In this document: positions 8,427 through 31,524 of the stretch, in pieces | How the letters are laid out: each line of letters opens with the position of its first letter | Position numbering within the stretch: position 1 is the stretch's first letter | Assembly (NCBI GenBank): GCA_021413845.1 | Contig: JAIOPP010000095.1 | Coordinates: forward strand, 5,993 to 69,992 | Source of the DNA: Planctomycetia bacterium | GTDB lineage: Bacteria > Planctomycetota > Planctomycetia > Pirellulales > PNKZ01 | Direction of reading: 5' to 3' | DNA length: 64,000 bases | The notes under the pieces: model-generated | What the model was told of the DNA's origin: nothing | What the model saw: the letters and a program-made list of their open reading frames with translations, nothing else | Database searches by the model: none | Translations under genes and position numbers: made by a program

Positions 8427-9797
8427 TTAGATCGTGAACGGTGCGCGATACTTGCGGCTCGTAAGGGCCTGCGCTTCCGAGTCGTCGATAACGGCCTCTT
8501 TCACGGCGTCCCAGCGGATCTTGCGACCGGTTTGAATTGCGATGTTGCCGAGATGGCAAGCCGTGGCCGCGCGATGACCGATCTCGATCTCGCACACCGG
8601 CGGCTTGCGCGACGCCACGCATTCCAAGAAGTTGCGATGATGGTTCTCGCTCACATACAGCCGCACATCTTCGGCCTTGAGCGGCTCCTTCAACAAGTAT
8701 TCCGGCTCGACGACGATCTTGCCGCGGGCTACGAAAATCCTTCCTTCGGAGCCGATGAACGTTACCCCGCCGGGAATGTCTTTCTGCTGCTGGCCGACGA
8801 TCATCGTCACGTCGTTCGGGTACTTATACGTGACGCGGCAGGTCTCGGTGACTTCGTGCCAATGCTGCGGGTGGAACGTGCCGGTCCCTTCGATTTCGAG
8901 TGGGCCGGATTCGTCCATTCCCATGCCCCAATGCGCGATGTCGATATGATGCGCGCCGAAGTTCGTCATCTGCCCGCCCGAGTAGTCGCGAAAGAAGCGG
9001 AAGTTGTAATGGACGTGGTTCTTGTTATACGCGCGCTCCGGGGCGGGCCCGAGCCAGGCGTTGAAATCGAGCTCCGGCGGTGGAGCGCTGTCGGGAATCG
9101 GCTCGCCGGGATGATTCGGCTTCGGGATCCCCACCAACACTTCCTTCAACTTCCCGAGCCGGCCGGAGCGGACCAACTCGCAAGCCTGCCGGAACTTTTC
9201 GTCGGAACGTTGCTGCGAACCGGTTTGCACGATCCGCTTTCCCGCGCGGACCGCGTCGATCATCTTGCGCCCTTCGAAGATCGTGTGCGTCAGCGGCTTC
9301 TCGCAATAGACGTCTTTTCCGGCCAGGCAAGCGTCGATCGTCATCCGGGCGTGCCAATGGTCGGGCGTGCTGATGACGATCGCGTCGATGTCTTGCCGAT
9401 CGAGCAGCTTGCGATAATCGGCGACCCCTTCGACGTCGCGCATAAGCACCTTCTGCATCGCGGCTTGCGCATCGGCTAGCACTTTCGAGTCGACATCGCA
9501 CACCGGGCCGACCGTGCAGAGCGAACCATCGAGCTTCGAGAAGCTTCTTAAGTTCGACATCCCTTGGTTCTTCACGCCGATGTGCCCGGTGACGATCCGG
9601 TCGTTCGCGCCGAAGGCCGAGCGGGGGACGAAATACGGCGCCGCCAGCGCAGCCGAAGCGGCCAGCGAAGTCTTGAGGAATCGCCGCCGCGAAACTTGCG
9701 GAACCGAAGCCGAAACCGAAGCAGCGTGCGCACGATCGAGGGGCAAAGACATGGCAAAGGTTCCGGGCGAGGTTTCCGAGGAAGTGGCGGCGAACAT
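8427..9797 (-). CDS. Gfo/Idh/MocA-family oxidoreductase with Tat signal
   Basis: Twin-arginine motif SRRRFLKTSLAASAALAA, followed by a Rossmann-type N-terminal domain. The start may instead be the ATG at 9752. Confidence 0.75.
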   Translation of the reverse strand: MFAATSSETSPGTFAMSLPLDRAHAASVSASVPQVSRRRFLKTSLAASAALAAPYFVPRSAFGANDRIVTGHIGVKNQGMSNLRSFSKLDGSLCTVGPVCDVDSKVLADAQAAMQKVLMRDVEGVADYRKLLDRQDIDAIVISTPDHWHARMTIDACLAGKDVYCEKPLTHTIFEGRKMIDAVRAGKRIVQTGSQQRSDEKFRQACELVRSGRLGKLKEVLVGIPKPNHPGEPIPDSAPPPELDFNAWLGPAPERAYNKNHVHYNFRFFRDYSGGQMTNFGAHHIDIAHWGMGMDESGPLEIEGTGTFHPQHWHEVTETCRVTYKYPNDVTMIVGQQQKDIPGGVTFIGSEGRIFVARGKIVVEPEYLLKEPLKAEDVRLYVSENHHRNFLECVASRKPPVCEIEIGHRAATACHLGNIAIQTGRKIRWDAVKEAVIDDSEAQALTSRKYRAPFTI

Positions 9798-10111
9798 CGA
9801 GCGACGGCGAAGGGAGAGGCGATCCCGTTATATTCGGAGCAACCGATGTTTTCTACCTGCGCTCCGCTGGAGCCGACGGTCGTGAGCGTGAAGAGCCTGC
9901 GCCGCGAGCGCGCCCCGGCTTGAAAACCGGCCCGACGTCACCTATAACGGAACCTCGCCGCGGACGTGGCGAAACTGTTTTTGACGCCCGTTTCTGTCAT
10001 CTAGAGTGACCGATTATGTGGCGCCTATCGCATCTCTGTATGCCGCCGAATCTCTTGCCGGCGATTTCGTATAATCGCTGTCGGATAAACGACAACCGTG
10101 AGGCCGACGCG

Positions 10112-11032
10112 ATGGCTAAAGCAATTCAAAAACAGATTCTTTTCATCTCGCACGTCGCCGAAGAGATTGCGATAGGCAAGGCGTTTGAGAAGCTGATAGA
10201 CGAAACGTTTATGGGCCTAATGAAGCCGTTCGTTTCCGATATCCCGTTGGGTCTGCAATGGTACGAGACCATTAGTAAGAATTTGAAAGACTGCTCGGCC
10301 GGAGTCGTAATGGTCGGTCCGAGGTCGGTACGACGGCCTTGGATCAATTGGGAATCTGGAGCGATATGGGGGCAGGGCAAAAAGATTATTCCCCTATGCC
10401 ACTCAGGATTGATACCGACCAAGTTGCCATACCCGTTGCAAGGTCTTCAAGCGGGAATAGCTACCGATGCTGAATCTCTAAACTTGGTTCTTTCAGTTGT
10501 CGCACAATGCTTAGGCTGCAACATGCGAACGGTCAACGTTCAGCCGTTTATTGATGCGGTTAAAGCATTCGAGATAGACGACGCAAAAAACAATCTTTTG
10601 ATTAAGAATGAAGGATCGACCGACGTTGACGGAATGGGAAAACACGAAGTCGACATTATGAGTGCGTTACTCACGAACCTAGATAATCCCGAAGCAGCAG
10701 TACCGACAGATGAGATTTATAAAGTTGCGACATCGATGGGGCATTCTCGTAATGCAATTACGCTCGGTCTCGGGATGCTCAAGCGTAGGGGGCTAATCGA
10801 GTTTGCCGACCACGGAAATTATAGTAATGACGTGTGGTTCGTCACCAAGCCAACGCCCGATGGTTGGGAATGGCTTTATTCAAACTCGCACTTATTCATA
10901 ATGACGGCGGAACCCGAACCAGCCGCCAAGACTAACGACGACGGGCCACCGTTGCGACGACCGGGTATTAGTCCGATAAGGGAAAAGCCCATTCGTCGGC
11001 CTCCTGTTGATGATGGAGACATTCCTTTTTAG
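10112..11032 (+). CDS. TIR-like domain protein with C-terminal winged-helix-like domain and Pro/Arg-rich tail
   Basis: Track ORF 10016..11032; I prefer the ATG at 10112. TIR_2-like elements are ILFISH, GVVMVGPRSVRRPWINWESG and KKIIPLC...LPYPLQGLQ. The C-terminal segment SRNAITLGLGMLKRRGLIEF looks wHTH-like. G+C is depressed relative to the flanks. Confidence 0.7.
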   Translation: MAKAIQKQILFISHVAEEIAIGKAFEKLIDETFMGLMKPFVSDIPLGLQWYETISKNLKDCSAGVVMVGPRSVRRPWINWESGAIWGQGKKIIPLCHSGLIPTKLPYPLQGLQAGIATDAESLNLVLSVVAQCLGCNMRTVNVQPFIDAVKAFEIDDAKNNLLIKNEGSTDVDGMGKHEVDIMSALLTNLDNPEAAVPTDEIYKVATSMGHSRNAITLGLGMLKRRGLIEFADHGNYSNDVWFVTKPTPDGWEWLYSNSHLFIMTAEPEPAAKTNDDGPPLRRPGISPIREKPIRRPPVDDGDIPF

Positions 11033-11255
11033 ACACCGGGCATGGACAGCAATGTCTTCTTTTACCCGCGAGCGAATATGCGAAATGGCTTTGTATGCGC
11101 ATTCGCGCACGCATGTGCTGAAAGCTCTCCGCTCGGAATCAAGTCTTGTACTCTCTCAAGTGAGTTCATGCTAAGATGGCGGCAGCCCTCCGCCGCTTCT
11201 AGCTTGCCCGCCTCGTGATATCGTTCGCTCGCGTCACGCCCTTCGAGTGCGATCT

Positions 11256-13583
11256 ATGCCACGCTCGATCTTTTCGCTTTTCATCGTCGGTTTGACGATC
11301 GCCTGTGCGGGCGCACCCATCTGCGCCGAAGAAAAGAAGACCTACGACGGGCCGAATTGCCTGGCCCCGGTCGATGATTTCTTTGCGAACGAGGTTTGGG
11401 CGAAGGTCGGGGCGCAGGCGTGTTTGAACTGTCATAAAATCGGAGGGGATGCCGAAGAGAGCAAGTTCGTGCTGCGCGATCCGAGCCGGAGCCAAGGGAC
11501 GGCCCGCAGCGAGGCGCTGCTGCACAATCGGGATGCGTTTGCGCGGATGGCGAAGCTGCGCGAGGGAGACCGCTCGCGGATCCTCGTGAAGGTGACCGGC
11601 GGACTCGAGCACGGCGGCAGCGACGTCCTGAAAGCCGACTCGACCGGCTATCGGATCCTCGCCGATTTCGTGCATCGCACGACAGCCCCGAGCGCGGCGG
11701 TTGCGCCGCAGATCAAGATCGACGAGCAGAACGTCCGCGCGTTCTTCGACGGCATCGTGATGGTCGACGATAAAAAACTGTTGCGACGTCTGACCCTCTC
11801 CTTAGCCGGCCGGCTGCCGACCGCGGCGGAGCTGGCGGCGGTGAGCTCGCAGGGACGAAAAGCGATCCCGGCGCTGCTCGACGGCATGATGAAGGAAGAA
11901 GCGTTCTACACGCGGCTGCGCGAAGCGTTCAACGATATCTTTCTCACGGTCGGTTTCGAGGACAACCCTGAGACCGTGCTGTCGTACGAGCATTTCAGCA
12001 AGACGCGCAATTGGACGCAGAGCTTCGACCTGAGCCGCATCAAAGACGAGAAGGAACGGACGCAGGCCGGCTACAAACTCTCGGGCGACTATCGCAAAGC
12101 GATCCTCGGCGAGCCGATGAAGCTCATCGAACATATCGTGCGCAACGACCGACCGTTCACCGAGATCATCACGGCCGACTACATCATGGTCACGCCGTTT
12201 TCGGCCCGCGGCTACGGCATCTACGACGAACTGAAAGGGAAGTTCGCGCTCCCGGAGAATCCGCAGGAATACATTCCGGTGAAGCTCAAGGCGCTCGTCG
12301 CCCGCACGCCGAACGACAACCAAGAATCGGCGACCGGCTTCTACCCGCACGCGGGCATTCTGAGCACGTTTCAGTATTTGCGCCGCTACCCGACGACGGA
12401 AACCAACCGCAATCGTCTCCGTTCGCGGATGTTCTATCAGCACTTTCTCGGGATCGACGCCTTAGAGTTGGCGGCGCGCGTGTCCGACGCCGCGGCCGTA
12501 ACGGCGAAGTTCGAGATCCCGACGATGCAAGCCTCGGAGTGCGTCGTGTGTCATCGGTCGCTCGATCCGGTGGCGAGCTTGTTTCAAGACTACTACAAGT
12601 TCGAGGGAGTGTACGGCCGGCGCAAAGAGGGTTGGTATAAGGATATGTTCGGCGCGGGCTTCGAAGGGGAAGAGATGCCGCCGGCCGAGCGTTGGCGAGC
12701 GCTGCAATGGCTCGGCGAGCGGACCGTGAAGGACCCGCGCTTCGCGACGGCGATGGTCGAGCATGTGTACTACATTCTCGCCGGCCGCAAGGTGCTGTTG
12801 CCGCCGAAAGAGCTCGACGATCCTCTCTACGCCGCGAAGAGCCGCGCCTATCAGGCTCAGCGGCGCGAAGTCGAAGCGATCGCCGTGCGCTTCGCGCAAG
12901 ACAAGTTCAACTTGAAGACCGCCTTTCGAGCCTGGGCCGAGTCCGACTTCTACCGGGCCGACGGCTTACGCTCTGCCGCGGCAAGCCCGCAACGCGAGGC
13001 CGAGCTCGACGACATCGGCCTCGCTCGCATGCTCTCCCCCGAGCAGTTGGAGCGGAAGCTCGCCGCCGTGTTCGAAGAACGCTGGGGCCGGCTCACGGAT
13101 CAAATGGCGATGCTCTACGGCGGGATCGATTCCAAGGAAGTAACGGAACGTGCCGCCGACCCGAGCGGCGCGATGGGTGCGATCCAACGGATCATGTCGA
13201 ACGACGTCGCTTGCAAACAAACCGCGCGCGACTTCGCCCGCCCGCCTGCCGAACGTCGACTGTTCCCCGGCATCGAGCCCGACGTCGTGCCGGGCAATTC
13301 TCCCGACGGAGACGCCGCGCTTCGGCGGGCGATCGCGCACCTGCATCAGCGCATTCTCGGCCGCGACGATGCCGTGGACTCGACCGAAGTCGACCGGACC
13401 TGGGAGCTTTTCGCCGGCATCATCGACGACGCGCACCAACAGAAAAGTTTCGAGAAACGCGAGAGCTACTACTGTCGCCAAGGGCTTCCCGAGCCTTTGA
13501 CGAACGATCCGCACTACACGCTGCGCGCTTGGCGCGGCGTCGTCACTTATCTCCTGCGACGGCAGGAATTTCTTTACGAGTAG
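11256..13583 (+). CDS. secreted CxxCH-motif protein of the planctomycete DUF1549/DUF1553 or DUF1588 type (partner of DUF1501)
   Basis: Signal peptide MPRSIFSLFIVGLTIACAGAPICA (ATG 11256; the track starts at GTG 11247). Haem-type motifs are CLNCH and CVVCHRSLDP. A DUF1501 gene follows after 4 nt. Confidence 0.7.
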   Translation: MPRSIFSLFIVGLTIACAGAPICAEEKKTYDGPNCLAPVDDFFANEVWAKVGAQACLNCHKIGGDAEESKFVLRDPSRSQGTARSEALLHNRDAFARMAKLREGDRSRILVKVTGGLEHGGSDVLKADSTGYRILADFVHRTTAPSAAVAPQIKIDEQNVRAFFDGIVMVDDKKLLRRLTLSLAGRLPTAAELAAVSSQGRKAIPALLDGMMKEEAFYTRLREAFNDIFLTVGFEDNPETVLSYEHFSKTRNWTQSFDLSRIKDEKERTQAGYKLSGDYRKAILGEPMKLIEHIVRNDRPFTEIITADYIMVTPFSARGYGIYDELKGKFALPENPQEYIPVKLKALVARTPNDNQESATGFYPHAGILSTFQYLRRYPTTETNRNRLRSRMFYQHFLGIDALELAARVSDAAAVTAKFEIPTMQASECVVCHRSLDPVASLFQDYYKFEGVYGRRKEGWYKDMFGAGFEGEEMPPAERWRALQWLGERTVKDPRFATAMVEHVYYILAGRKVLLPPKELDDPLYAAKSRAYQAQRREVEAIAVRFAQDKFNLKTAFRAWAESDFYRADGLRSAAASPQREAELDDIGLARMLSPEQLERKLAAVFEERWGRLTDQMAMLYGGIDSKEVTERAADPSGAMGAIQRIMSNDVACKQTARDFARPPAERRLFPGIEPDVVPGNSPDGDAALRRAIAHLHQRILGRDDAVDSTEVDRTWELFAGIIDDAHQQKSFEKRESYYCRQGLPEPLTNDPHYTLRAWRGVVTYLLRRQEFLYE

Positions 13584-13587
13584 GCCC

Positions 13588-14868
13588 ATGCGACGCGATT
13601 TTCTGAAATACTGCGGCCTGGTCGGTCTCGGGCTCGCCGCGCCGATCCGCTTCCCAGGCGCTGCGCGCGCGGCCACCGACGACGCCCCCTACGAGGGCCC
13701 GTTGTACGTCGTGTTCAACGCTTCCGGCGGTTGGGACACGACCTACTTGATGGACCCGAAAGGGGTCGGCGAAATCAACCGCTTGTACAAGGCCGGCGAC
13801 ATTCAAACGCGGGGCGAGCACAAGTTCGCCCCGACAAAGAAACACATCGCGGCCGGCATGAGCAACGAAGAGTTCTACGCCGAGTTCGGCGACGAGCTGC
13901 TCACGTTCAACGGCCTCGACTATTCGGTGAACAACCACGCACCCGGCTCGCGCTACATGGCGACCGGCAAGCTCGACAGCATGGCCTACCCGACGTTTGC
14001 CGCGCTCGTCGCCGCGTGCCAAGGGCCTGCTTGTCCGCTGTCGTTTTTGACGTTCGGCAACTATTCGACGACGGGCAACCTCGTCGCGATGTCGCGCGTG
14101 CCGTATTTGCCGTCGCTGCAAAAGCTGGCGAATGCCGATGCCGTCGAAGGGAATCGGCGCGCGCCGTATCACGACTCGTTCGTGCTCGAGCGGATCGAGC
14201 GGACGCTCGAGGAAGGGAACAAATCGCGGGCCGCGGAAGTCCGTCTGCCGCGCATCGAACGAGCCGACAACATGCTCTACGCCGCGCAAGCGAACTCCAA
14301 AGCGCTCGAGCGGGTCACCCCTTACATTCCGACGACGTCTCCCAAGGAGCGGCTGTCGCAACAAGTCGAGATCGCGCTTGCGTCGTTCAAAGCCGGCGTC
14401 TGCGTCTCGGCGAACCTCTCGATCGGTCAATTCGATAGCCACGCCAACAACGATCCCGACCAGATGAAGCTCCTGCCGGAATTTCTCGCCGGCATCGCGT
14501 ATCTGTTCCGCCGCGCGGAAGAGTTGAAGATTCGCGACCGCTTGGTCGTAGTCGTGCAGAGCGAGATGGGACGGACGCCGACCTACAACAAAGGAAACGG
14601 CAAAGATCATTGGTCGATAGGCTCGATCATGTTCCTCGGGCGAGGCATCAAAGGGAATCGAGTCGTCGGTGCGACCGATGAAAAACAGTTCCATATTCCG
14701 GTCGATCCGAAGTCGCTGGCCTGCGACAAGGAAAAGGGAATTCGCGTCCGGCCCGAGCATATTCACACGGCGCTGCGCGAGTTCGCCGGCATCGCAGAGC
14801 ATCCGTTCAGCAAGAAGTTCCCGCTCGGCGTCGTCGAAAAGGAACGACTGCAAGGGCTCTGGGGCTAA
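13588..14868 (+). CDS. DUF1501 (sulfatase-fold) protein with Tat signal
   Basis: Tat motif MRRDFLKYCGLVGLGLAAP, then YVVFNASGGWDTTYLMDPKG, and the C-terminal EMGRTPTYNKGNGKDHW...GIKGNRVVGATDE. Confidence 0.8.
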   Translation: MRRDFLKYCGLVGLGLAAPIRFPGAARAATDDAPYEGPLYVVFNASGGWDTTYLMDPKGVGEINRLYKAGDIQTRGEHKFAPTKKHIAAGMSNEEFYAEFGDELLTFNGLDYSVNNHAPGSRYMATGKLDSMAYPTFAALVAACQGPACPLSFLTFGNYSTTGNLVAMSRVPYLPSLQKLANADAVEGNRRAPYHDSFVLERIERTLEEGNKSRAAEVRLPRIERADNMLYAAQANSKALERVTPYIPTTSPKERLSQQVEIALASFKAGVCVSANLSIGQFDSHANNDPDQMKLLPEFLAGIAYLFRRAEELKIRDRLVVVVQSEMGRTPTYNKGNGKDHWSIGSIMFLGRGIKGNRVVGATDEKQFHIPVDPKSLACDKEKGIRVRPEHIHTALREFAGIAEHPFSKKFPLGVVEKERLQGLWG

Positions 14869-30558: not shown

Positions 30559-31524
30559 TCAGCGTCCAAATCCTGGAATTGAAATAATGTACGGTGAACC
30601 ATCTGGGCGGCTCATGATCCTCAGGTCGTTCATGCTCGGAGTAACCGGCACACGACCACCAGGAAGCGGCGAATCAATTATCAAATCTTCGCCAAGTCGC
30701 CGGAGATACTTCTGTTGTTGACGGGCCGAGAGAGAAGCCAGATCAACAATCGAAACTCTAGTAGGTTCAAGTCCGGCTTCCGCAAGGACTGCTCTCGTCC
30801 TTGTGTTCATTGACACCAACGCCCCGGTGTCGGGATGCCTAAATGCCGTCAGTGGCAAATCGTCGGGAGTAAGATCGCCCTTACGCAAATCGGCGACAAC
30901 ATCGGCGAGGCTACGACCACTTGTCTTGGGGAACGCATCATCGACGCTGAATGACGGCGACACTCGCCGTTGACCGAACAATACCGGCTCGCCAATTCCC
31001 TTGGCGGGAGCATTTGCTTGGGCGCACATATTATGCGCGAGAACGCGTAGCTCGCCAACGGCGTAGTTATGGAGGTCTTGGACTTGGAGATTGTAGACCT
31101 TCTCGACGACGGATCGCAGCGCGATCGCTTGGATCGGGACTTGTCGTCCGTCCATCAGGAGCACGACGTCGCCGAGGAGCATGTCGCCCGCGTCGACCCA
31201 GCGGCCCGGCAGTTGCGAATGCTCGGGCGTCGCGATCCGCACATGGTCGGGCCGCGGGCGGTCTTCGAGATCAAGGCCCGACACGACCCAATACGGATGG
31301 TGGTACGTCGATTCGATCGTTTGCTCGTCGATCGTGAGCGCGACGAAGTCGCCTACATGGTCGAACTCGTAAGTCTCCACGACCGGTCGCAAGACCCACT
31401 CCATCCGGGCAAGATCGAAGGCCCAGGCCAGATCGCCCACCGCGATAGGCATCAGCCTTGGGAAGATCCAGCGGCGCAAGGAGCCGGAAGAGGCGCGGCC
31501 GGCATCGTAGCAGGCACGTTCCAC
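30559..31524 (-). CDS. 5'-truncated (orphan) polymorphic-toxin module: C-terminal part of a Hint domain plus an unassigned C-terminal toxin domain
   Basis: Hint motifs are HHPYWV, GRWVDAGDMLLGDVVLL, KVYNLQVQDLHNYAV and VLAHN. The N-terminal Cys strand and all upstream delivery domains are missing. The first 24 codons are read out of an inverted-repeat arm. The likely usable ATG is at 31452. Confidence 0.7.
   Translation of the reverse strand: MERACYDAGRASSGSLRRWIFPRLMPIAVGDLAWAFDLARMEWVLRPVVETYEFDHVGDFVALTIDEQTIESTYHHPYWVVSGLDLEDRPRPDHVRIATPEHSQLPGRWVDAGDMLLGDVVLLMDGRQVPIQAIALRSVVEKVYNLQVQDLHNYAVGELRVLAHNMCAQANAPAKGIGEPVLFGQRRVSPSFSVDDAFPKTSGRSLADVVADLRKGDLTPDDLPLTAFRHPDTGALVSMNTRTRAVLAEAGLEPTRVSIVDLASLSARQQQKYLRRLGEDLIIDSPLPGGRVPVTPSMNDLRIMSRPDGSPYIISIPGFGR

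Follow-up and report, generated by a model that had tools for sequence, protein, structure and literature searches.

A single gene in the 64,000-nucleotide stretch of DNA analysed here (the window) encodes a 306-amino acid protein in which a TIR-like domain is followed by a long helix, a winged helix, a disordered linker and a C-terminal tip of the kind found on bacterial SSB proteins (Table 1). We put the probability at roughly 0.45, somewhat short of even odds, that this protein is a self-contained TIR effector that works against phages by abortive infection, is the product of a single, horizontally acquired gene and is governed by a control module that ends in an SSB-type tail. Judged from the sequences of its relatives, it is really the tip that sets the family apart. 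The preliminary description of this DNA had noticed the Pro/Arg-rich tail, which stands as the linker, but had overlooked the conserved tip at its end.

Table 1. Features of the TIR gene and its surroundings (positions are those of the window)
Feature	Position	Strand	Basis
Low-G+C islet, one gene between native genes	9950..11200 (approximate borders)	.	G+C profile, kilobase ranking, GC3
Terminator-like hairpin with T-run, upstream of TIR gene	9955..9982	+	Consensus scan
Palindrome GCGATT-N6-AATCGC, not significant	10061..10078	.	1 observed, 1.26 expected
TATAAT, −10-like hexamer, 36 nt upstream of ATG	10070..10075	+	Single TATAAT on plus strand of the 64-kb window
Shine-Dalgarno-like GAGG, 8 nt before ATG	10100..10103	+	Read from sequence
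Coding sequence, 306 aa (TIR-like domain, long helix, winged helix, disordered linker, SSB-type tip)	10112..11032	+	ORF, family alignment, AlphaFold
TIR-fold domain, residues 8-134	10133..10513	+	Pfam TIR_2 and ThsB_TIR at cut-offs; AlphaFold and Foldseek; AbTir profile match
W77-I-N-W-E81, WxxxE motif, E81 putative catalytic Glu	10340..10354	+	W77 and E81 invariant; alignment with AbTir W204/E208
C96-H97-S98-G99 motif after strand beta-D	10397..10408	+	Conservation in 27 members
Long connecting helix, residues 144-166	10541..10609	+	AlphaFold model
Winged-helix domain, MarR/PadR-type, residues 177-257	10640..10882	+	Models, Foldseek, charges, weak Pfam matches
Disordered Pro/Arg-rich linker, residues 262-299	10895..11008	+	pLDDT 49-67; family comparison
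SSB-type tip D300-D-G-D-I-P-F306-COOH	11009..11029	+	Family consensus, link to winged-helix module

Genomic Setting and Foreign Origin of the Gene

The reading frame that harbors the TIR gene is open across 10016..11032. We take the ATG at 10112 as the start because the N-termini of the family align at this position (MAKAIQKQILFISH versus MAKSIQKPVLFISH of homologue P0002) and a GAGG sequence is found 8 nt upstream; hence, the 306-aa open reading frame reported beforehand is real. A start at 10016, which would yield a longer protein, was rejected on the ground of this alignment and because a promoter-like site would fall within the extension.

The G+C content of the TIR gene is 48.6%, with 51.8% at the third codon position (GC3), against 61.8% for the rest of the window and a GC3 of 73-80% for the neighboring genes. 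The segment 10001-11000 is the lowest in G+C (49.6%) among the 64 kilobases of the window (mean 61.7%, standard deviation 3.0), and values below 55% extend from about 9900 to 11250 in a 300-nt profile. The low-G+C islet previously noticed is thus confirmed by the profile, the kilobase ranking and the GC3 of the gene relative to its neighbors, and the gene, with its foreign composition, was acquired horizontally. Consistent with the native appearance already ascribed to the flanking genes, their GC3 is that given above; the upstream neighbor, on the minus strand, encodes a Tat-signal GFO/IDH/MocA oxidoreductase, and the downstream neighbors, on the plus strand, encode PSCyt2/PSD4 (DUF1549/DUF1592) and DUF1501 proteins. 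The PSCyt2/DUF1501 pair is kept in 80 PVC relatives, none of which carries a TIR gene beside it or has the oxidoreductase gene adjoining it; this comparison shows that the TIR gene is not a syntenic core gene, with the borders of the islet remaining approximate. In six of eight family loci the TIR gene is likewise more AT-rich than its flanks. The window contains no integrase gene, no tRNA gene and no flanking direct repeats beyond chance.

No usual partner gene of a TIR protein is present within ±10 kb in the window, and seven homologue loci lack a conserved partner, the downstream genes differing in every one of them; the absence of a partner, asserted earlier from the window, therefore extends to the family. 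With about 30 clusters the family is a rare one; its genomic context, taken from seven members, includes a second TIR gene, an AbiJ/Abi_C gene, a tyrosine integrase gene, and excisionase-like and SieB-like genes. This context of the relatives makes a role in defence plausible. Phages and plasmids carry a sister subfamily, and it alone turned up in their annotated records (N-terminal domain matches with 44-56% coverage), never the combination of winged helix and tip. Seemingly full-length matches on three viral contigs (L087, L097, L153) were discarded; their C-terminal domain differs and the tip is missing. In a library of viral structures, TIR/NDT-like and helix-turn-helix folds were matched separately, and no protein displayed the whole architecture. 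A search with the C-terminal module alone, aimed at finding it on other effector domains, in an index of 5.8 billion proteins retrieved nothing at E ≤ 0.01, the family itself included, which probably reflects a word-seeding limit.

The TIR Domain and Its Putative Catalytic Glutamate

A TIR-like domain had been read by eye at the N-terminus of the protein, and profile searches, an AlphaFold model and Foldseek comparisons with solved TIR structures all bear this out. The score with the Pfam family TIR_2 (PF13676) is 28.0 bits, exactly at the curated cut-off of 28, and that with ThsB_TIR is 21.3 bits (cut-off 21.2); an indexed search gave a precomputed PF13676 match in all of 115 relatives. Among the PADLOC models, TIR-TM and ThsB models were matched, the latter with E-values of 4e-6 to 4e-4 over 40-50 residues only, and a profile built from the family matched AbTir chains at E-values of 4e-6 to 2e-5. 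The model of the domain (pLDDT 88) has a flavodoxin-like alpha/beta fold that can be superimposed on solved TIR domains, and Foldseek reported a probability of 1.0 for EcThsB, the SPARTA TIR-APAZ protein, SpbK, AbTir, SARM1, RPS4 and RUN1. Nucleoside 2-deoxyribosyltransferase-like and CMP N-glycosidase enzymes were among the fold matches as well; together with Pfam scores that lie at the cut-offs, this means that the substrate is not certain.

The WxxxE motif, which is typical of NAD-cleaving TIR domains (PMC10641520), is represented in helix C by residues W77 and E81. Both are invariant in 27 family members and align with W204 and E208 of AbTir, a protein whose NADase activity is abolished by the E208A substitution (PMC10641520). 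The Glu of the WINWE sequence hence occupies the catalytic position that had been proposed for it, and the domain may well be an NADase. A second motif, C-H-S-G, is located behind strand beta-D; among the 27 members, H97 and G99 are invariant while C96 and S98 reach 90% conservation or more, and by this measure of sequence conservation the motif is a hallmark of the TIR subfamily.

One alternative takes the protein out of defence altogether: it might serve mobile-element addiction or manipulation of the host through the network of SSB clients, for example by competing for the partners of SSB, or its TIR-like domain might cleave nucleosides or nucleotides as an N-glycosidase where DNA is processed. 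The association of the gene with mobile elements, the fold matches to nucleoside 2-deoxyribosyltransferase, MilB and BcmB, and the position of the gene in the window amid housekeeping genes and outside any defence island would all fit such a function. We nevertheless judge it quite unlikely: at the level of sequence profiles the domain matches TIR_2, ThsB and AbTir and not the NDT families, its WxxxE motif is the one typical of NAD-cleaving TIRs, and defence genes (AbiJ/Abi_C, a second TIR gene) adjoin the gene in other genomes.

An Acidic Winged Helix and a Variable Linker

The winged helix suggested earlier for the C-terminal half is found as a fold in both the AlphaFold and Foldseek analyses, while its borders, originally set at residues ~200-275, had to be moved to residues 177-257. 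In this segment the protein resembles regulators of the MarR/PadR type (Foldseek probability 1.0, RMSD 2.5-3.5 Å over about 88 residues). All winged-helix Pfam models stay below their thresholds; sub-threshold matches occur in 1-4 of the 27 members, and these weak matches of the C-terminal domain are exclusively to winged-helix families. Every one of the 27 members has a domain with negative net charge (−2 to −9), and a single member has a neutral wing, that of the other 26 being acidic. In the AlphaFold models, no MarR-type dimerization helices flank the winged helix. Where the recognition helix ends, R225 hardly varies across the family, and position 226 is mostly occupied by Lys or Arg. The domain is followed by a conserved amphipathic [KR]LxL stretch, and the linker behind it varies across the family in both its length (tail of 13-46 aa) and its composition.

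The preliminary description had considered that the winged helix could bind DNA, either as a sensor or as an autorepressor that acts on the palindrome at 10061..10078, over the promoter of the gene. The fold that it shares with the DNA-binding MarR/PadR regulators, the basic residues at the end of the recognition helix and the overlap of the palindrome with the TATAAT hexamer are in keeping with this suggestion. The palindrome is indeed present, but its frequency is that expected by chance (1 observed versus 1.26 expected in shuffled intergenic sequence, with 63% of the shuffles reaching this number), and it was not found upstream of the homologues, so that no significance attaches to it. Moreover, unlike MarR/PadR regulators, the domain has an acidic surface and an acidic wing, lacks the dimerization helices and has no family HMM match above threshold. 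Because of the acidity of the winged helix and its wing and the chance-level occurrence of the palindrome, autorepression is not supported, and we regard a DNA-binding function of this kind as very unlikely.

The C-terminus Matches the Tip of Bacterial SSB Proteins

Alignment of the last six residues of 30 family members gave the consensus D-D-D-I-P-F (F in 30/30, P in 27/30, and I, V or L in 26/30), and all four of the nearest homologues end in DIPF. The six-residue consensus is identical to the hexapeptide of Escherichia coli SSB (PMC5872125; PMC7145534), which is highly conserved as SSB-Ct and serves as a docking site for many partners (PMC5872125; PMC7145534). As in the bacterial SSB tail, a disordered linker of variable length precedes the D-D-D-[IVL]-P-F-COOH sequence; in contrast to SSB, the tail is carried here on a TIR domain and a winged helix, and an OB-fold is found neither by the SSB Pfam model (PF00436) nor in the AlphaFold model. 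That the tip might bind partners as the SSB tip does is suggested by this likeness.

The tip is strictly linked to the winged-helix module: it is present in 26 of 36 related proteins that contain the module and in 0 of 222 that do not (p = 7e-28). In 5,424 open reading frames from 2.46 Mb of loci it was found only in this TIR family and in one SSB confirmed by Pfam, the latter (in locus L112) serving as a control with 106 bits to PF00436, and it is absent from about 2,000 open reading frames of related PVC genomes. Literature searches retrieved no protein other than SSB, immune or otherwise, that carries an SSB tip; strings of the tip peptide occurred solely in papers on SSB. In AlphaFold models of the whole protein and of its isolated C-terminal module, the tail is docked on no surface (pLDDT about 50-60), a modelling result that leaves an internal partner neither supported nor excluded.

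Such an internal partner is at the heart of a second alternative, in which the tail is a regulatory element that folds back on its own TIR domain or winged helix (auto-inhibition) or binds a neighboring subunit (self-assembly); its likeness to SSB would then be convergent, and activation would come from another trigger sensed by the winged helix. In favor of this explanation, SSB's own tip interacts with the DNA-binding core of that protein. The strict co-occurrence of tip and winged helix would be expected if the two interact, and the amphipathic [KR]LxL stretch behind the winged-helix domain points in the same direction. However, an acidic winged helix is a poor partner for an acidic peptide, the tail remains undocked in both AlphaFold models, and six positions, including the terminal P-F-COOH, match SSB, while acidity alone would give less. 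On balance, we view an internal role of the tail as unlikely.

The tip could also be a degradation tag: ClpXP would recognize the [ILV]PF-COOH end and keep the level of a toxic TIR protein low, and a block in proteolysis, brought about by infection or stress, would let the protein accumulate. In Streptococcus mutans UA159, the LPF end of SsbA suffices for degradation by ClpXP, even when attached to GFP (PMC5143411). Yet the same motif is ignored in E. coli, S. gordonii, S. sanguinis and some strains of S. mutans (PMC5143411), and a signal of three residues leaves the conserved acidic positions −4 to −6 unexplained; we consider this possibility highly improbable.

How an SSB-type Tail Could Control a TIR Effector

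In single-gene TIR effectors, a phage protein activates the NADase and the infection is aborted (PMC12847820; PMC11984713; PMC11350192). By analogy with other bacterial TIR effectors, the TIR domains of the protein considered here would most likely cleave NAD+ once several of them are brought together. The control module would be the C-terminal half, composed of the acidic MarR-like winged helix, the variable flexible linker and the D-D-x-[IVL]-P-F-COOH peptide, whose tip may dock in pockets that normally accommodate the tip of SSB. The last seven residues of host SSB are specifically recognized by phage RecT proteins (10.1101/2020.04.14.041095; PMC13490951), and phage recombinases or phage SSB are sensed by many unrelated defence systems (PMC11846896; 10.1101/2025.11.11.687766; 10.64898/2026.02.22.705581).

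For the control of the effector by its tail, we propose the following mechanism. Monomeric host clients would each bind one tail, with no effect. Oligomeric proteins of phages or mobile elements that need the tip of host SSB would instead offer many adjacent pockets and in this way cluster the TIR domains; the clustered domains would break down NAD+ and abort the infection. Candidate triggers are the ring- or filament-forming annealases of the RecT/Redβ type; assemblies of phage helicase/primase or SSB may be others. Since the SSB clients of the host would bind the tip too, the model needs a safeguard against self-activation; multivalency is our proposal for it. In a more far-reaching and rather doubtful version, the family would be a "decoy-tail" immune sensor, which holds out a copy of the SSB docking peptide as bait and thereby catches phage or plasmid proteins that have to seize the tip of host SSB, such as annealases of the RecT/Redβ type and replication or recombination factors; the oligomeric state of these proteins would cluster the TIR domains and set off NAD+ depletion.

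Few triggers of single-gene TIR effectors have been mapped, and these are portal, tail and capsid proteins. An SSB docking peptide on a TIR protein suggests a testable principle of recognition, namely the mimicry of a host hub motif that many phage proteins of replication and recombination must bind, and a phage could hardly evade such a bait, as binding to the SSB tip is not readily dispensed with. If the decoy-tail reading is true, guarding of a host hub peptide through mimicry would be shown for a bacterial immune protein for the first time; the protein would also provide a natural tool to find SSB-tip clients in poorly studied phyla, and the winged helix, linker and tip would constitute a portable sensor module for engineering. 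Even with a role of the tip in auto-inhibition or turnover, no SSB-type tip would have been described outside SSB proteins before, as far as the literature was searched.

Relation to Known Defence Systems

A TIR defence system consisting of one gene is in itself not unprecedented; TIR-V, -VI and -IX (PMC11350192) and SpbK (PMC12847820) have been shown experimentally to act as single proteins. Like these, the protein is the product of one gene that has no conserved partner and is carried by mobile elements; its TIR domain contains the catalytic Glu, and its fold matches the SpbK filament (9phb). It has no meaningful sequence similarity to SpbK, however (the PADLOC spbK match has an E-value of 0.034 over 25 residues), a winged helix, linker and SSB tip are reported for none of the single-gene effectors, and the known triggers of the latter are portal or tail proteins.

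The best matches in both sequence and fold are TIR_2 proteins, Thoeris ThsB and AbTir (EcThsB 8wcf; AbTir 7uwg/7uxr), with which the FISH..E..., WxxxE and beta-D "iPl" elements are held in common. In contrast to Thoeris, no ThsA-type effector (SIR2/SLOG, Macro or TM) is encoded within ±10 kb or in the seven homologue loci, and the C-H-S-G motif is not typical of ThsB. Short pAgo systems (SPARTA) differ in that the C-terminal half is a winged helix here and not APAZ, and that there is no Ago-like neighbor. Retron-Eco8, DARNA, TIR-Retron and other systems triggered by phage SSB or phage recombinases survey the ssDNA-handling machinery of phages (10.1101/2025.11.11.687766; 10.64898/2026.02.22.705581; PMC11846896; PMC11350192), which a mimic of the SSB tip would be expected to contact as well; none of them is reported to possess an SSB tip, and other domains or msDNA sense the phage protein in these systems.

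The Region Upstream of the TIR Gene

The TATAAT hexamer pointed out previously is present as the only copy on the plus strand of the window, and from its sequence and position it is probably the promoter of the TIR gene itself; a consensus scan recognized no good −35 element in front of it. At the closest homologue locus (L001), GTATAATCG stands 39 nt before the ATG. The interval 9700-11400 has no match in Rfam and hence contains no known RNA, retron-like or other. The terminator-like hairpin further upstream is not preceded by a plus-strand gene; it possibly marks the left border of the inserted cassette or is a remnant, though this is uncertain. At the L001 locus, a hairpin with a T-run is likewise positioned just 5' of the promoter-like site.

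Architecture and composition of the TIR gene

The gene certainly encodes, as a stand-alone unit, a TIR domain with the catalytic glutamate, a winged helix of acidic charge, and a flexible linker ending in an SSB-type tip (DDGDIPF-COOH). The main value of the finding lies in this apparent mimic of the SSB tip, which provides a specific, testable hypothesis. The preliminary description had observed the gene and both domains correctly; its interpretation stands in part, its autorepressor idea being weak, and the tip had been overlooked.

Within a longer open frame (Table), the N-termini of the homologues (MAKSIQKPVLFISH...) line up with the methionine at 10112, and a GAGG lies 8 nt 5' of this ATG; the 306-amino-acid product originally proposed is therefore correct. 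The low G+C content noted earlier is strongly borne out: the gene has 48.6% G+C (GC3 51.8%), compared with 61.8% G+C in the remainder of the window and a GC3 of 73-80% in the four nearest genes. Among the 64 kilobases of the window, the one that the gene largely fills has the lowest G+C (49.6%; mean 61.7, SD 3.0), within an interval where a 300-nt profile stays below 55% throughout. The composition is foreign; family genes are more AT-rich than their flanks in six of eight loci. A pretoxin-HINT (PT-HINT) protein of 321 amino acids is encoded in the second most AT-rich kilobase (53% G+C) and may represent a polymorphic-toxin cassette.

The neighbours are ordinary planctomycete genes (Table), with UDP-glucose dehydrogenase, an epimerase, hydrolases and HSP90 encoded at a greater distance. 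The downstream PSCyt2/PSD4-DUF1501 pair is an ordinary conserved two-gene module, found in 80 PVC genomes at 56-76% identity and adjacent in about 75 of these 80 Planctomycetota/Verrucomicrobiota (56-82% identity). None of the 80 has a TIR gene near the pair and their upstream context differs; the TIR gene is thus not a syntenic core gene. Neither a clean empty site among these genomes nor repeats, a tRNA or an integrase marking an insertion in the window was found.

More telling than the palindrome (Table) is the TATAAT that precedes the TIR gene, the only one on the plus strand of the whole window; at the closest homologue locus, GTATAATCG stands about equally far from the start. Judged by these motifs, the gene appears to have a promoter of its own. 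Further upstream lies a hairpin resembling a terminator (TCGCCGCGGACGTGGCGA), with a T-run but no plus-strand gene before it, which could be a leftover or mark the left border of an inserted cassette; the closest homologue locus also has a hairpin and T-run, just before its promoter-like site. The window's only other TATAAT belongs to an antisense promoter-like site inside the gene (GTGACG-16-TATAAT, 10 of 12 matches).

Table. Features of the window and of homologous or phage loci
Feature	Sequence	Position	Strand
Tat-signal GFO/IDH/MocA oxidoreductase	window	8427-9797	-
G+C below 55%	window	~9900-11250	
Terminator-like hairpin and T-run	window	9955-9982	+
Lowest-G+C kilobase	window	10001-11000	
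Open frame	window	10016-11032	+
GCGATT-N6-AATCGC palindrome	window	10061-10078	
TIR gene	window	10112-11032	+
C-H-S-G motif (residues 96-99)	window	10397-10408	
Antisense promoter-like site	window	10845-10818	-
[KR]-L-x-L-like stretch (residues 261-266)	window	10892-10909	
PSCyt2/PSD4 protein (DUF1549/DUF1592)	window	11247-13583	
DUF1501 protein	window	13588-14868	
PT-HINT protein	window	30559-31524	-
Second TIR_2 protein	L005	11000-12007	
Sister-subfamily gene	phage contig L087	1690-2448	
Sister-subfamily gene	phage contig L097	8285-8758	
Sister-subfamily gene	phage contig L153	8001-8759	
Phage SSB	phage contig L112	3727-4116	

TIR domain and acidic winged helix

The product matches Pfam TIR_2 (28.0 bits, cut-off 28) and ThsB_TIR (21.3 bits, cut-off 21.2) as well as the PADLOC TIR-TM and ThsB models, and EcThsB is its sole PDB match by sequence. 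An AlphaFold model built with 27 family members (pLDDT 88) places an alpha/beta domain at residues 8-134, a long helix at 144-166 and a domain of three helices and a beta-hairpin at 177-257; from about residue 262 onwards the tail is disordered. Foldseek matches residues 8-134 at probability 1.0 to EcThsB, the SPARTA TIR, SpbK, AbTir, SARM1 and plant TIRs; further matches are to nucleoside 2-deoxyribosyltransferase-like enzymes, whose fold is the same. The family profile aligns with the AbTir NADase across the whole TIR domain (E 4e-6 to 2e-5), placing W77 and E81 on W204 and E208 of the AbTir WxxxE motif, the glutamate of which is required for NAD+ cleavage (PMC10641520). Both residues are invariant in the 27-member alignment. 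The TIR assignment and the position predicted for the catalytic glutamate (WINWE) are thereby confirmed; NCBI already labels the product 'toll/interleukin-1 receptor domain-containing protein', and the assignment is therefore not new. An invariant or near-invariant C-H-S-G motif after strand beta-D is specific to the subfamily, its H97 aligning with the histidine of the AbTir 'PIWH'.

The winged helix also proved to have been recognised correctly. Modelled by itself (pLDDT 86.5), the C-terminal domain matches MarR/PadR winged-helix proteins (probability 1.0, RMSD 2.5-3.5 A), and its weak Pfam matches among family members are exclusively to winged-helix families. Unlike DNA-binding MarR/PadR proteins, however, it has an acidic net charge in 27 of 27 members (-2 to -9) and an acidic beta-hairpin wing in 26 of 27, and its 'recognition' helix, largely made up of residues that are small or hydrophobic, ends in a basic pair. 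The palindrome upstream of the gene, on which an autorepressor had been proposed to act, is present, but 1.26 copies are expected in shuffled sequence against the one observed, and the homologues have none at the corresponding place; the autorepressor idea is weak because of both. That the winged helix binds DNA or acts as an autorepressor, for which the fold match would speak, consequently ranks below SSB mimicry. Between winged helix and linker, most members have a short, conserved amphipathic [KR]-L-x-L-like stretch that may form a strand for dimerisation or docking.

The C-terminus carries an SSB-type tip

The Pro/Arg-rich tail described earlier is disordered; what had been missed is its end. 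The four closest proteins all terminate in D-[DG]-D-I-P-F. An exhaustive HMMER search of 1.84 billion representatives yielded 3,129 relatives, about 30 of which have the full architecture; hundreds have the N-terminal domain alone in common and carry other C-terminal parts. Among 30 full-length members, the last residue is F in all and the penultimate P in 27; position -3 is I (16), V (8) or L (2), position -4 D (17) or E (7), position -5 D (16) and position -6 D (10) or E (5). The consensus D-D-D-I-P-F equals the hexapeptide at the C-terminus of E. coli SSB, which is described as highly conserved and as the place where many genome-maintenance proteins dock (PMC5872125; PMC7145534). A disordered linker of varying length and composition precedes the tip, just as it does in SSB (tail length 13 to 46 residues).

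In 258 related proteins, an [IVLFM]PF end occurs in 26 of the 36 with the winged-helix module (four of the other 10 finish on a related -F, and several of the remaining sequences are truncated) versus none of the 222 without it (Fisher p = 7e-28). The tip is thus strictly tied to this module. It is found in the TIR gene alone among about 2,000 ORFs of 100 or more amino acids in 1.15 Mb of related PVC genomes. Throughout the 2.46 Mb of loci examined, seven of 5,424 ORFs of 80 or more amino acids end in an acidic-[IVLFM]PF motif: six belong to the family and the seventh is a genuine SSB (Pfam SSB, 106 bits) encoded on a phage contig (Table). Ending in ...EEEIPF, this SSB served as positive control for the motif. 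The tip is not a compositional accident.

A tail acting as an internal auto-inhibitory or assembly element is ranked below mimicry of SSB, the hexapeptide of which the family consensus reproduces. The same applies to a ClpXP degron: an LPF-COOH signal is known, but has been shown solely in some S. mutans strains (PMC5143411). Full-text literature searches located the motif in SSB papers only, and retrieved no report of an SSB-type tip on a TIR or other non-SSB immune protein.

Relatives reside in mobile settings

In line with the single-gene reading put forward previously, there is no conserved partner gene: the genes downstream of the family members at the five homologue loci (L001, L003, L004, L005, L006) are mutually unrelated. 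Neighbours include a tyrosine integrase (L003), an excisionase-like HTH protein with a sub-threshold SieB-like protein (L001), and an AbiJ/Abi_C protein with an XRE regulator (contig of member P0152). On L005, a metagenome contig of 130 kb, another TIR_2 protein, unrelated to the family member (PADLOC PDC-S66/ThsB-like, E 1e-39), is encoded about 130 nt downstream of it, and next comes a protein whose MtlR-like match stays below threshold. A sister subfamily (252 amino acids) shares the N-terminal TIR-like domain with its CHSG motif, but differs in the C-terminal domain and lacks the tip. In three phage contigs (Table) its gene sits between a late-regulator-like gene and terminase genes, the L097 copy appearing disrupted; related copies are present in Javan47 and phiGBSVK, two Streptococcus prophages, and on a Klebsiella plasmid of 4.6 kb. 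The subfamily matches phrog_29177, a phage family of unknown function. The TIR gene moves horizontally, and these neighbourhoods are the typical setting of mobile defence cargo. We regard a defence role as likely (probability about 0.65) and rank a non-defence role below the mimicry model.

A possible mode of action

Bacterial TIR effectors cleave NAD+ on assembly into oligomers, and single-protein TIR defences are known (PMC11350192; PMC12847820). Many proteins that partner with SSB have pockets in which its tip docks (PMC7145534). Phage RecT annealases show specific recognition of the seven C-terminal residues of host SSB (10.1101/2020.04.14.041095; PMC13490951), and phage recombinases or phage SSB trigger many defence systems (PMC11846896; 10.1101/2025.11.11.687766; 10.64898/2026.02.22.705581). 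The tip of the TIR protein could mimic the SSB tail; whether it acts on SSB-client pockets is, in our estimation, an evenly balanced matter. Oligomeric phage clients of the tail would then bring several copies of the protein together and so activate the TIR NADase; monomeric host clients would leave it inactive. This specific bait-and-cluster scheme is tentative and, taken as a whole, less likely than not.

Several known identities are ruled out: Thoeris (no ThsA lies within 10 kb on either side of the gene), SPARTA (no APAZ or Ago), SSB itself (no OB fold) and, by sequence, a MarR regulator. The closest counterparts are single-gene TIR effectors such as SpbK, TIR-V, -VI and -IX by function, ThsB/AbTir-type TIR_2 domains by sequence and SSB by the tail.
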